A stretch of DNA of 64,000 nucleotides, taken from UHGV virus genome UHGV-0242533, one strand, 5' to 3'. Below, one piece after another: positions 8,757-21,090 of this stretch. Below the pieces are notes generated by a model. That model was not told where the DNA came from. It made no database searches and saw only the letters and a program-made list of their open reading frames with translations. Source of the DNA: a virus. Both the position numbers and the translations under genes were made by a program. Numbering within the stretch: position 1 is the stretch's first letter; each line of letters opens with the position of its first letter.

Positions 8757-9230
8757 TTAACTCTCGTCCGCTTCCTCCCCCTTTTCAGCGTCCTCAGAGT
8801 TGTCTTCTTCTGGAGGCATAACGTCAACACCAAGTGCTCCAGTCAAGAAGTCCTTGATTTGTGCATTCAATGATTCTTCGTTGATTACATTCTCTTCCTC
8901 AATCTTAACTTCAACAGAGGCCGCCTTAGGATATACCAGATCTGCAACTTTTGATGCAGCCTTGAATCTAAGATCAGGTGGAATATTAGGATCTTCGTAA
9001 ATTTGAATTAACACTTCATCAGGAGACAAATGACTTGCAGCAACACGGTCCAACATTAATTGTGTCAGTTTACCTCTACTACCTTTGGGTCGTCCGAATT
9101 TATTTCCCTTTTGAAACTTCCCATTGCTTGGGTTCATACCACGGCTTTCAAGTTCTTCCGTTACTCCGGGTAATCTTCCTGTAACCTCAGCTACCTGTGC
9201 AGGCGTGAGTTCTCCGTTTTCTCCAAACAT
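8757..9230 (-). CDS. Putative terminase small subunit (157 aa)
   Basis: Small basic/acidic protein directly upstream of the large terminase gene. Confidence 0.45.
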   Translation of the reverse strand: MFGENGELTPAQVAEVTGRLPGVTEELESRGMNPSNGKFQKGNKFGRPKGSRGKLTQLMLDRVAASHLSPDEVLIQIYEDPNIPPDLRFKAASKVADLVYPKAASVEVKIEEENVINEESLNAQIKDFLTGALGVDVMPPEEDNSEDAEKGEEADES

Positions 9231-9286
9231 TTTATACTCCTTCTACATTATCAACAACACAAAAAGCCTCCCAACGGAGGCAAATA

Positions 9287-9982
9287 TTACTTACAATCAC
9301 CAACGGACAGGTTAAACATCTTACCTAGAGCAATCGTCTCACCTTCCCACGGAAGTTCTGCACCCTTCTCTTCCTCTAAAAGAATAGAGCCGTCGACCAA
9401 AAATTTTTCGTAGTCTCGCAGTGCGTCGTCTACTAACTCACTCTTGTGAATCCACGTAATTGTTTCTGTACCATCCTCTTCGATTCGAACATCACGATGC
9501 CATTCATCTTTGGAGGTAATGTAATCATGGAGCATTTCATATTCAGCTTCTTCAATCATCTCAATCATTGCACGAGCATAGTCAGGGAGGTGATCATGTT
9601 TAGTAGATTCGTATTCAACTACTTCCAGAGTAGAAGGCTTAGCCCGTGCAACTTCTTCAAGTACTTTTGATCGATCTTTGTAGTAGTTCTCATATTTATC
9701 ACCAATAGTACCGACTTGAAGTCCACGGTATTGTTCTACTAAACTCATCATATCTTTCTTCTCCGTAATAGTTGGTTTAAGAATACTTCCACTATATAAA
9801 TCTTGTACAGCCAGTCCTGAAACATTTCCCATAGTTTCTAAATGTTGCAAGCTACAACCAGAACGACACAGCTGTGAATTGTAGTCAACCATGTCCATTG
9901 CTTTGATGTGGAAAGGAGAACCAGAAGGGAAACTACCTCCATAAACACCTTCCATGTTAACTGCGATTATTTTATTATTCAT
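9287..9982 (-). CDS. Hypothetical protein (231 aa)
   Basis: ORF track; operon context. Confidence 0.5.
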   Translation of the reverse strand: MNNKIIAVNMEGVYGGSFPSGSPFHIKAMDMVDYNSQLCRSGCSLQHLETMGNVSGLAVQDLYSGSILKPTITEKKDMMSLVEQYRGLQVGTIGDKYENYYKDRSKVLEEVARAKPSTLEVVEYESTKHDHLPDYARAMIEMIEEAEYEMLHDYITSKDEWHRDVRIEEDGTETITWIHKSELVDDALRDYEKFLVDGSILLEEEKGAELPWEGETIALGKMFNLSVGDCK

Positions 9983-10229
9983 TTGTATCTCCCTTGCTGT
10001 AATCTTTGTATGTTTCTACTTTGTAAGTGCGGAATGCTCTGAAGAAGAGCCAACCTAAGCTACTCACATCAATTGTGATATCGAAATCTGTATCATCATC
10101 TAAATCAACAAGACGACCTAAGCATGTAGCTTCCATCCCTTCTTCAGAGTCACTGTTGACTACGAAAGCGTATGTCTCAGTTCTGAACCGAGGCACCAAC
10201 TCTGATAAAAAGTCTAATACTAAATTCAT
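9975..10229 (-). CDS. Hypothetical protein (84 aa)
   Basis: ORF track; first gene of the minus-strand operon. Confidence 0.4.
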   Translation of the reverse strand: MNLVLDFLSELVPRFRTETYAFVVNSDSEEGMEATCLGRLVDLDDDTDFDITIDVSSLGWLFFRAFRTYKVETYKDYSKGDTNE

Positions 10230-10248
10230 AATTCTTCTCCTCTGAATA

Positions 10249-10392
10249 AAAGTATAAAGGGCACATCATAAGATCAACCCGTAAAGGCCACGTCATACCA
10301 ACAACCCGTGTACGCTGAAGTAAAGGGCATGTCATAAAGGGGACTTCATGTTAAGGCACCCTCACATTAAGGCCATGTCATTAGTCATACTT
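10249..10392. repeat. Array of about six degenerate direct repeats (AAAGGSCAYRTCAT-like)
   Basis: Read directly from the sequence: aaagggcacatcat, aaaggccacgtcat, aaagggcatgtcat, gggacttcatgt, aaggcaccctcacatt, aaggccatgtcat. Confidence 0.5.
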
Positions 10393-10769
10393 GATACACC
10401 TTGCTATAGAGAAGCAGATGAATAAACAGAAGACTATTACTAACCAGAATATCCATTCCATTAAGGTCTGTCCATCCATGTGCTGTGTTTAAGCTTACCA
10501 CATTTACTACATCTCCAAGTGGACTTATAAAGGGTGTGAACTCTTTCATCCCCGTAAGCTTTGTGTATCCGATAGTACTCATGATCACATTTGAATTGCT
10601 TAATGATTAACTTAATTTTCCACATAAATTCTCTTTCAACCTTATATATAAGAGTTTAAAATTCTGATTTGACCGAATGGGGCTAGCCGCTCGCCGCGCG
10701 TTTCCTAAAAAGGGGGAGTCCTCATTTAAAAAAGGGTTATTGGCAATGCCTTTACCTTCCCTTTACATG

Positions 10770-11340
10770 TTCCACCTTTCCCCGTGCCTACTCCCCGTAG
10801 TTATTCCCCCGTGTATCCACACCACATAAATGGTGGGGCATACTTTTATGCCTCTGTATACTACCCAATACATTACCTACCCGTTTATTTAGTTCCCCTT
10901 TAAAGAGTGGATGAGAGGCCAGCACTGTATAAAGGTCTGTATAATGATTAGATTAAGGCACTATGAATAAGCTAATAACACCCCCTAGTTACTACCCCAT
11001 TCCCCCCATAGTTTGATTGTAAATAGTTTCAATAGTTGTTATTATGAGTGCAATATATGATGGGTGCATGGAATGCACAGCTACGAAGTAGCGTTGTATG
11101 TATGTATTAATTAAGTGGAAAGATTGATACTTTCTTTTATGTTCTTTCTTTTTCAGCGTACCTGAGCGTAAGCGAAGGGTGAGTACGTAGTACGAACGGT
11201 CTTTGATGTTTGAGTAGATGATTTTGGTTAAGTGGTATATTACTACCGCACTATCTGGCTATCCTTCCCCGTGGTCTGTTCTGCGGTTGTGTGTTCCCCG
11301 TCCTATATAGATAGTAGAATTAATTCACCCGTGGTCTTGC
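10770..11340. repeat. ORF-poor region with recurring C-rich motif TTCCCCGTG(G)
   Basis: About six copies (tttccccgtgcc, actccccgtag, ttcccccgtg, ccttccccgtggtc, gttccccgtcc, tcacccgtggtc) between the divergent late and early blocks. Confidence 0.4.
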
Positions 11341-11559
11341 TTTCCTTATTAGGTAGTGGTAAATTGAATCTATCGATTGAGTGGTTGGAGTAGTAGAAAT
11401 GATTATCTTAGTAATGTTGGTGCTGGCTGTAGCGTTTCCTTTGCTTGCTCTGATTGTTTGTGAAGTGGTTGAGTTATTCACTGATAAAGGGTTAGAAGTT
11501 GTTGATAAACCAAGCAAATTTGATGGCGTGAAATTTAGTAAAAAAGTTGAAATTAGTTG

Positions 11560-11588
11560 TTGACATGTTAGGTAATAAGAAGTATAGT
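11560..11588 (+). promoter_or_regulatory. Sigma70-like early promoter
   Basis: TTGACA, 17 nt spacer, TATAGT. Confidence 0.5.
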
Positions 11589-11629
11589 TATCTCATTGAA
11601 ACGAAGTATACTAACTAAAGGGGTCAATC

Positions 11630-12106
11630 ATGAATAAGGCAAACTTTGTAATCGGTGCTCTGGTATTAACCTTCGGTAGTATGGCTATCGCTGACAAGAT
11701 TGCTAGCGCTCCAGTTGCTCAAGCTGCTGTAGTTATGACTGATGCTGCTGATACATTCGTTAGCAACGCTCCTAAAGGTTGGATGGTTTGTAAAGGATTG
11801 GATTCAGATAACGTCACTACGTTGATGAAAGTTAAATTATCTAACGTAACCAATCGTGGTATGATTTTGTCTACTCGTACACTTGACAATCAGAACAATG
11901 AGGATATTCTTCTTTCCCGTAAAGACAATGACCCTGAGTTGATTACCTTTGGCGATGTGCAGACTATCAAAGGTTCTAAAGTTGTGACTAATCTTGTAAC
12001 GTATGGTACAATGCAAGAAACCATGTTAGCCACTTCCGTTTATGCTGCTGATAACAGTATTTGGACGTTCCGCTTTCAGATGGGTGATTGTGTTAAAGCA
12101 AAATAG
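11630..12106 (+). CDS. Secreted protein with signal peptide (158 aa)
   Basis: N-terminal MNKANFVIGALVLTFGSMAIA signal-like segment; RBS aaagggg. Confidence 0.55.
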   Translation: MNKANFVIGALVLTFGSMAIADKIASAPVAQAAVVMTDAADTFVSNAPKGWMVCKGLDSDNVTTLMKVKLSNVTNRGMILSTRTLDNQNNEDILLSRKDNDPELITFGDVQTIKGSKVVTNLVTYGTMQETMLATSVYAADNSIWTFRFQMGDCVKAK

Positions 12107-12109
12107 TTG

Positions 12110-12138
12110 TTGACACGGTTATAGATTGGCAGTATTAT
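12110..12138 (+). promoter_or_regulatory. Sigma70-like early promoter
   Basis: TTGACA, 17 nt spacer, TATTAT. Confidence 0.5.
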
Positions 12139-12173
12139 TACTTCATCAAGACAACATTAAAGGAATCAAGACA

Positions 12174-12503
12174 ATGAAAACCCTAATCGCATCTGCTCTT
12201 TTATCTGTAGCTGTTCTTTCAACTGTTGGATGTTCTTCTTCTCCGCGTCCTAACGGTTGGTGTGCTCTGGAAGTTGAAGGCACTTGTGTGATGCGTTGGA
12301 AAGATGGCGTTAAGGTTCCTGCTGGTGAGATTGACATGAAGTACGAAGGTGCTAGCTGTTCTAATGGTGGGTCTGTTGATGAAAAAGCCTATCGTGAGCG
12401 TGATATGAAAACACAAGCCGATTGGAAGAAGTCAGATTTTATCTCCCGAGCAACTCATTGCGGTGGCAATACTTCCGTTAAGGGTAAAGAATGGGACATT
12501 TAA
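12174..12503 (+). CDS. Lipoprotein (start at internal ATG 12174 preferred over ORF-track 12126)
   Basis: MKTLIASALLSVAVLSTVGC lipobox-type signal; RBS aagga; paralog of the 21091 gene. Confidence 0.55.
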   Translation: MKTLIASALLSVAVLSTVGCSSSPRPNGWCALEVEGTCVMRWKDGVKVPAGEIDMKYEGASCSNGGSVDEKAYRERDMKTQADWKKSDFISRATHCGGNTSVKGKEWDI

Positions 12504-20985: not shown

Positions 20986-21090
20986 ATAGCTCTGCGCCGT
21001 TAGCTCAATTGTATAGAGCAGTTTCCTTCTAAGAAATTGGTTGGAGGTTAGAATCCTCCACGGTGCGCCAAATTGAATGAGAGGTGTGTT

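Follow-up and report, generated by a model that had tools for sequence, protein, structure and literature searches.

A predicted genome-terminus region with a length-variant terminal repeat and arrays of C-rich boxes in a phiEco32-like coliphage

The phage and the genes that border the non-coding gap

The stretch of viral DNA analyzed here (64 kb, hereafter the window) contains a gap of 773 bp (10626-11398) in which no credible gene is found. The gap separates two divergent blocks, a leftward one with the terminase and structural (late) genes and a rightward one with the early genes, as a preliminary description of this DNA had it; that description put the ORF-free region at about 1 kb, somewhat more than the gap proves to span. 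The cumulative GC skew reaches its minimum near 11000, where its sign flips, and because the direction of transcription switches at the same place, no origin is needed to explain the change.

Megablast searches with 10200-12200 and 11000-34999 returned about 95-110 records each, and the sole matches were Kuravirus (Gordonclarkvirinae) phages of Escherichia and Shigella, among them phiEco32, SU10, NJ01 and ES17. Judged by this similarity, with 97 related records, the window phage is a Kuravirus, i.e., a phiEco32-like coliphage. The minus-strand genes, a series with ORFs of 54/67, 84, 231 and 157 aa and a 513-aa large terminase, match phiEco32 genes 1-7 one for one and in the same order; relative to phiEco32, the window is thus read as the reverse complement. 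The early genes form a different mosaic from those of phiEco32, with ORFs of 54 and 158 aa in place of phi32_128.

On its left, the gap is bounded by the first left-arm gene (10461-10625, minus strand), which encodes a 54-aa, zinc-ribbon-like product with a CxH...CxxC pattern in its translation. This ORF, annotated as SU10_01 in SU10 and ES17_1 in ES17 (CDS1), fits better than the overlapping phiEco32 ORF1 call. On the right, the first early gene (11399-11563, plus strand) encodes a small hydrophobic, predicted membrane protein of 54 aa that matches phrog_7482 (E 1.4e-9). The ORF is kept in PGN6866, 172-1, NJ01, O18-011, Bas93 and LAMP, with differences that are mostly synonymous or conservative. 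Listed earlier as only a possible membrane peptide, it is, on the evidence of the family match and of the pattern of changes, a real and conserved gene.

Promoter-like elements of the sigma-70 type point in both directions, and to this extent the earlier label of a control region holds in part. Rightward, a consensus scan predicts a conserved sigma-70-like promoter that faces the early genes (11017-11045, plus strand; TTGTAA-17-TATTAT with an upstream TG); it lies in a block (11011-11055) with 69% invariant columns, and a T-rich tract of variable length is found at 11120-11155. Two sequence variants that occur singly in relatives follow each other in tandem at 11160-11195 of the window. The right limit of the region is set by a near-consensus sigma-70 early promoter (11560-11588, plus strand; TTGACA-17-TATAGT, matching the consensus at 11 of 12 positions) with a twin, also near-consensus, at 12110-12138; comparable early promoters are given in the SU10 promoter table. 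Leftward, the conserved left-arm flank (10626-10684, minus strand; 58% invariant columns in 11 phages) may contain a sigma-70 promoter for the first left-arm gene: SU10 Table S2 gives the homologous sequence as a potential sigma-70 promoter for CDS1, and a sigma-70 consensus scan picked up no promoter in this flank.

The right arm also contains two conserved inverted repeats. In the near-invariant GTGGTA-N6-TACCGC (11232-11249, plus strand), identified with RNAalifold, five of the six pairs are identical in 10/10 sequences and LAMP breaks one; since nearly all pairs are identical, they leave no covariation to test. An invariant hairpin, CCGTGG-N6-CTGCGG, follows at 11269-11286. RNAalifold analysis of 11046-11310 in 10 relatives gave only invariant or near-invariant hairpins, with none of the 21 predicted pairs compensatory, and Rfam returned no match over 10200-12200 at E up to 1. 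A reading of the region as a structured or non-coding RNA is thus unsupported both by Rfam and by covariation.

The terminal repeat, its boundaries and its private insertions

Kuravirus genomes end in direct terminal repeats (DTRs) that have been established experimentally (PMC9965538; PMC6787329; PMC4281155). The ends of phiEco32 were determined with a combination of restriction profiles, primer walking and subcloning (Savalia et al. 2008, summarized in PMC9965538), those of Paul by PhageTerm and those of YF01 from full-length nanopore reads (PMC9965538; PMC6787329). DTRs of about 190 bp, with a highly conserved stretch at nt ~130-170, have been found by similarity in 30 Kuravirus phages (PMC9965538).

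The two ends of the phiEco32 record are an exact repeat of 193 bp, which aligns to 10685-10920 of the window with 95-97% identity in the conserved parts. Multiple alignments that cover 16 relatives place the annotated DTRs of YF01 and Paul in the same interval; the equivalent of 10685 (query position 97) is the last position in the linear records of phiEco32, SU10 and YF01, and that of 10920 is the first in the ES17 record. The repeat is placed as elsewhere in the genus, with the CDS1/terminase module of the left arm on one side and the early genes of the right arm on the other, and its boundary sequences are conserved. The window holds a single copy, with no second one anywhere in its 64 kb, as would be expected of an assembly that collapsed the two ends as if the genome were circular. 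The earlier proposal that this region harbors the physical genome ends or terminal repeats is supported by homology, and the ends of the present phage very likely lie here, given their alignment with the mapped ends of relatives.

Between the homologous boundaries, the repeat measures 236 bp and falls outside the 192-193 bp reported for the 30 members because of a 43-bp insertion at 10812-10854; this makes it a length variant and is not evidence against homology. The repeat belongs to the known Kuravirus class, and from phiEco32 one could have predicted that it exists, where it lies and roughly how far it extends.

The predicted cut on the left-arm side, GGCT/AGC (10681-10687, with the cut, marked by a slash, between 10684 and 10685), coincides with the ends of the phiEco32, SU10 and YF01 records and corresponds to the right physical end of virion DNA in the phiEco32 orientation. 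Of 15 sequences (the window and its relatives), 13 have GGCTAG at this boundary. The predicted cut on the right-arm side, GGCC/AGC (10917-10923, between 10920 and 10921), coincides with the starts of the phiEco32 repeat and of the ES17 record and corresponds to the left physical end; the phiEco32 repeat begins with AGCCTTTC, the reverse complement of ...GAAAGGCT, which runs up to the cut. Here the window, MN03 and ES17 have GGCC/AGC and most relatives have GGCT/AGC. In the wider contexts, GGGGCT/AGCC on the left-arm side and AAGGCT/AGCA on the right-arm side (GGCC/AGCA in the window, MN03 and ES17), the string GGCT/A(G) is common to both boundaries across 15 genomes. Both boundaries would therefore sit in one short GGCT/AGC-like palindrome, with the cleavage positions inferred by homology.

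The first block of the repeat is rich in G+C. The GC-rich stretch noted earlier at about 10681-10700 (GGCTAGCCGCTCGCCGCGCG, 17 of 20 G+C) ties for the highest value of any 20-mer in the window, its sole equal being 540-559. Within it, 10685-10700 is the reverse complement of the phiEco32 3' end (...GCGCGGCGAGCGGCT); since the phiEco32, SU10 and YF01 records end at 10685, this island would form the last ~16 bp of virion DNA. Its sequence differs between lineages, with GC-richness retained. A near-invariant core of 50 bp follows (10706-10755, TAAAAAGGGGGAGTCCTCATTTAAAAAAGGGTTATTGGCAATGCCTTTAC; 76% invariant columns) and corresponds to the segment (nt ~130-170) described as highly conserved in the 30 Kuravirus DTRs (PMC9965538). 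A variable spacer of ~20 bp separates the core from three C-rich boxes, described below, and a conserved distal block (10878-10908, plus strand; 81% invariant columns) contains a weaker box, ACCCGT, at 10879-10884. A promoter for gp36, the phage sigma factor, was considered at 10867-10875 (TAATGTATT, minus strand) and rejected: the AATGTA core is missing in half of the lineages, and the gp36-type motif is not enriched window-wide (23 found vs 19 expected).

Three insertions are private to this phage, and all are associated with duplicated TGTAT. The one at 10812-10854, recognized from the alignment with relatives, has duplicated TGTAT flanks and two adjacent hairpins (folding z about -2.5); it is absent from all 15 relatives that cover the position, and EcK-vB is identical to the window on both sides of the insertion and lacks the insertion itself. 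A second insertion, of ~39 bp, lies in the right arm (11056-11100) beside duplicated TATG/TGTAT; it consists of two perfect hairpins with 3-nt loops, GTGCAT-GGA-ATGCAC (11064-11078) and GCTAC-GAA-GTAGC (11080-11092), and is absent from the 16 relatives examined. The third, 12 bp near 10926-10937, is just outside the DTR, also at duplicated TGTAT. No match was found for the 43-bp insertion in INPHARED phages, complete E. coli genomes or IMG/VR, nor for the ~39-bp insertion in INPHARED or IMG/VR, and neither has a second copy elsewhere in the window. Their source could be a miniature hairpin element that targets TGTAT; alternatively, they could stem from error-prone, hairpin-primed repair at nicks during duplication of the repeat. 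That an undescribed site-specific process, distinct from ordinary slippage, has left these marks on phage terminal DNA is conceivable at long odds.

The C-rich boxes

The C-rich motif, of which about six copies had been reported, was recovered as two exact copies of TTCCCCGTG (10778 and 11265), two that differ from it at one position (10805 and 11294) and two looser ones, CTCCCCGTA (10792) and TTCACCCGTGGTCT (11324-11337). Its core, CCCCGT, occurs six times on the plus strand of the 64 kb (10550, 10780, 10793, 10807, 11267 and 11296) and is absent from the minus strand of the 10550-11296 region. Five of these copies fall within 560 bp, where 0.05 would be expected (Poisson P ~3e-9); the remaining one, at 10550, is inside the first left-arm gene and encodes AYGDE there. 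The shorter CCCGT is similarly clustered, with 10 of its 35 plus-strand copies located in 10250-11350 (P ~1e-9). The excess is only marginal for the 9-mer with one mismatch allowed (13 vs 6.8 in shuffles).

The boxes form two clusters, both on the plus strand. In the DTR, three tandem boxes (10777-10813; CCCCGT at 10780, 10793 and 10807) are spaced by 13-14 bp and have 86% invariant columns, vs 14% in the preceding 21 bp and 5% in the neighboring coding sequence; they are present in 16/16 relatives, with YCCCGTG as the core in the more distant Bas93 and LAMP. In the right arm, 350-420 bp from the DTR, the boxes TTCCCCGTGGTCT (11265), TTCCCCGTC (11294) and TTCACCCGTGGTCT (11324) are spaced by ~30 bp (11265-11337). 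The first of them, which the hairpin at 11269-11286 overlaps, is conserved in 16/16 relatives, and 11226-11290 has 77% invariant columns; the later boxes differ in number and position. The preliminary description had named absence of the motifs from related genomes as evidence against its reading; instead, they are present and nearly invariant in all 16 relatives examined, where they belong to the region's best-conserved blocks. A scan of IMG/VR for the box pair retrieved only phiEco32, NJ01 and one metagenomic contig.

A packaging junction and its alternatives

As a whole, 10626-11398 is probably best explained as the genome-terminus region of a Kuravirus, i.e., a concatemer junction of the T7-like kind. 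By homology to the mapped genomes, virion DNA would start at 10920 and run leftward into the terminase and structural genes; the early genes and then another copy of the repeat would come last, with the end at 10685. Fixed ends and a short repeat in the genus imply packaging from concatemers, as in T7 (PMC9965538; PMC7881722): replication would yield head-to-tail concatemers with one repeat per junction, terminase would cut or nick at both GGCT/AGC boundaries, and strand-displacement synthesis would duplicate the repeat to leave one copy at each end of the packaged genome. The early promoters lie at the right end, which therefore probably enters the cell first, and packaging would accordingly start from the left end, beside the terminase genes.

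The DTR boxes are placed where lambda has its cosB R sites, and for this reason all six, the three in the DTR and the three in the right arm, are taken as candidate recognition sites for the small terminase, comparable to T7 pacB or to the R sites of lambda cosB. This assignment, made by analogy, is tentative; its support is indirect and comes from the conservation and single orientation of the arrays and from a putative small-terminase gene close by. The right-arm cluster, which might serve as a second recognition or termination element, fits the model less well: it is far from the cut (350-420 bp) and overlaps a conserved hairpin that possibly acts in transcription.

The candidate for the protein that would bind the boxes is a putative small terminase (TerS) of 157 aa, encoded directly upstream of the large terminase gene (8757-9230, minus strand). 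A family profile matches the small terminases of NV1 (7JOQ, E 0.0013) and PaP3 (6W7T, E 0.043), the homologue in YF01 is annotated as small terminase, and DUF5681 is matched by 15 of the 37 aligned family members (36 homologues and the window protein, which itself has no match). Single-sequence searches with the 157-aa protein against PDB, Pfam and NCBIfam were empty, and an AlphaFold2 model built from 37 sequences (mean pLDDT 69) retrieved nothing significant from PDB with Foldseek, PaP3 TerS appearing only at rank 9 (E 3.5). The assignment, drawn from profile matches and gene position, is accordingly weak. Co-variation of boxes and TerS is uninformative because TerS identity is as high as 97%, across the 128 N-terminal residues compared, in Bas93, whose boxes are slightly different. 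In Salmonella phage 7-11, with a TerS that is 50% identical, a left non-coding region of 1.75 kb carries different repeats (CYGTRTGGATA, four copies), which may be cited as an analogy only.

The boxes and the AT/T-rich tract might instead constitute a replication origin, with CCCCGT iterons for an initiator of the phage or the host, with transcription from the promoter at 11017-11045 activating it as at the primary origin of T7, and with the terminal repeat no more than a neighbor. The boxes are indeed direct repeats in a single orientation with regular spacing, the conserved promoter-like block is followed by the variable T-rich tract (11120-11155), and the cumulative GC skew has its minimum, with a change of sign, near 11000. 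The skew, however, switches where the direction of transcription does, and the three boxes of the terminal repeat are ~66-100 bp from a genome end, a position typical of terminase-binding sites; the neighboring genes encode small unknown proteins and terminase rather than an initiator, and no origin has been mapped for the genus in the accessible literature. An origin is therefore rated an unlikely reading of the boxes. So is early gene control, in which they would act as operators, bound by a phage or host regulator that recognizes CCCCGT and times the early promoters or pauses DNA entry, or at the RNA level as an attenuator, the first right-arm box and the hairpin at 11269-11286 ending a leader transcript that starts at ~11052. 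Sigma-70-type promoter-like elements facing both ways would suit such control, as would the entry of the right end, with the early genes, into the cell first, which is expected from the layout, and the invariant hairpin CCGTGG-N6-CTGCGG, followed by TTGTGTGTT, was flagged as terminator-like. Yet this hairpin, which includes two G-T pairs and is followed by a poor T tail, is weak, no Rfam family or compensatory change in RNAalifold speaks for an RNA element, and the gp36-type motif at 10867-10875 is confined to some lineages. The DTR boxes, moreover, are 200 bp upstream, on the far side of the promoter at 11017-11045, and thus outside its transcript. Regulation by the boxes is on balance improbable.

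A more radical alternative would regard the locus as a divergent intergenic region and nothing else, with the ends of the phage elsewhere, or its DNA circularly permuted, and with the similarity to the phiEco32 repeat a relic. The ends of this phage are placed here by homology, the 43-bp insertion is unusual, and one boundary has a one-base change; but phages with mapped ends are highly similar to this one in terminase, in putative small terminase and over the whole junction, the same boundary variant is found in MN03 and ES17, and every functional block of the repeat is intact. Such a relic is very improbable, and the terminus reading is retained.

Relation to known packaging signals and implications

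The junction shares with the repeats of phiEco32 and other Kuraviruses (SU10, Paul and YF01 included) homologous sequence, position, boundaries, core and the three boxes; it differs by the 43-bp insertion, one changed base at the right-arm boundary and the two further private insertions in the right arm. In lambda cosB (R3-R2-R1, bound by gpNu1) and SPP1 pacL/pacR, several copies of a short motif are located within ~50-170 bp of the cleavage site, adjoining the terminase genes, on the side where packaging begins. The DTR boxes, 108-140 bp from the 10920/10921 cut in the window and 66-98 bp in phiEco32 coordinates (i.e., without the insertion), have a cosB-like layout, with at least three motif copies within ~200 bp of the cut on the side of the terminase genes and with binding putative. 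By contrast, the right-arm cluster, 350-420 bp off, has no clear counterpart in lambda or SPP1 and at most loosely resembles lambda cosQ. Both phages make cohesive ends or headful cuts and have no terminal repeats.

T7, too, has arrays of short repeats beside its terminal repeat. With the junction of T7 and T3 (a 160-bp repeat; gp18 acting at pacB and gp19 at pacC), that of the window has several features in common: it belongs to a podovirus with defined ends, its terminal repeat is short and exact, the substrate is a concatemer, and a split between a recognition element and cleavage sites is proposed (PMC9860248; PMC7881722); in T7, pacB is recognized by TerS and pacC is cleaved (PMC9860248). 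The two have no sequence similarity, and in the window the array is partly inside the repeat and both cut sites are in one palindrome. T7 also relies on a phage polymerase, whereas Kuraviruses use the host RNA polymerase with a phage sigma factor; consequently, the T7 requirement for transcription across the junction by the phage polymerase cannot apply as such. The putative small terminase resembles those of PaP3 and NV1 (6W7T, 7JOQ) in a match to the oligomerization core, a length of ~155 aa and an acidic C-terminal tail (PMC7672466), although the match has weak E-values (0.0013 and 0.043), nothing significant came out of the fold search, and PaP3 has been classed as a cos phage.

That the genus has this repeat, and where it lies, was already established, and the gain is therefore incremental. 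The box arrays, the shared cut palindrome, the invariant 50-bp core and the TGTAT insertions are unmentioned in the accessible literature on phiEco32-like phages, the SU10 promoter table included and the original phiEco32 paper excepted; all of them but the core count as modest new details. For annotation, the genome should open with the left end at 10920, reading leftward, and close with the right end at 10685, and the true genome would be 236 bp longer than the circular assembly suggests. Kuraviruses, ES17 and SU10 among them, are in development for phage therapy, and their packaging signal may be useful for engineering or for transducing particles, which have already been built with the T7 pac site. 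More generally, the junction provides a compact, testable model of the packaging signal of a podovirus that has terminal repeats and transcribes with the host RNA polymerase.

Repeat boundaries and private insertions

The direct terminal repeat (DTR) is present in the window as a single collapsed copy at 10685-10920, and its two predicted boundaries share the palindromic context GGCT|AGC (10681-10687 and 10917-10923), which is kept, with one-base variants, in 15 genomes. Occurrence at both boundaries and conservation across these genomes suggest, at the level of sequence, that GGCT|AGC is a common candidate motif for nicking or cleavage.

Comparison with relatives reveals three insertions private to this phage, at 10812-10854, 10926-10937 and 11056-11100. 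Each is located at a TGTAT pentamer, duplicated on either side, and two of the three are made up of paired small hairpins; no further copies were found in any place searched. The DnaA box consensus is TTATCCACA, and the 43-bp insertion starts with an 8/9 match to it, GTATCCACA (10812-10822), a likeness that is probably due to chance.

Tandem modules and the early genome end

At 11160-11195, two alternative modules, GAGCGTA-GCGAA and GAGTACGNAGTACGAA, stand side by side in tandem, whereas relatives carry one or the other alone. In several phages, the GAGTACGNAGTACGAA module forms a GTAC-GNA-GTAC mini-hairpin; in the folding test, the 11160-11195 segment folded no better than shuffled sequence.

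The early genome end differs in its mosaic from that of phiEco32. The early-region ORF at 12174-12503 (plus strand) matches a phage lipoprotein family (Pfam PF24052, E = 1.7e-30), and the 158-aa ORF next to it (11630-12106) aligns with the C-terminal half of phrog_36409, a PHROG profile of 290 positions. A single tRNA-Arg gene (anticodon TCT), on the plus strand at 20994-21070, agrees with what has been reported for other kuraviruses.

Candidate control elements of the left arm

Four copies of the 15-mer TWAAGGSCAYRTCAT, all on the plus strand, begin at 10255, 10282, 10321 and 10367 (span 10255-10381), between an 84-aa ORF (9975-10229) and the first ORF of the leftward terminase/structural block (the left arm); the 64-kb window holds no other copy. 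Among 13 relatives checked, 12 have one to three copies at the equivalent place, and no exact match was found in SU10, one of the 13. The array may serve as an operator or promoter array of the late left-arm operon. A theme analogous to that of the CCCCGT boxes in and beside the DTR is seen in the distant relative Salmonella phage 7-11, whose small terminase (TerS) is 50% identical: within its 1.75-kb non-coding left end, at 907-990, the short sequence CYGTRTGGATA recurs as a direct repeat in four copies, at a spacing of 17-29 bp. These repeats differ from the CCCCGT boxes, and homology between the two arrays could not be shown.

Further into the left arm, TAATGTAGA (9242-9250, minus strand) lies immediately upstream of the putative small-terminase gene and matches one of the late promoters listed for SU10, 'gttgataatgtagaagg...', which is placed there between CDS3 and CDS4. 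This element is likely a late promoter dependent on gp36, the phage sigma factor.
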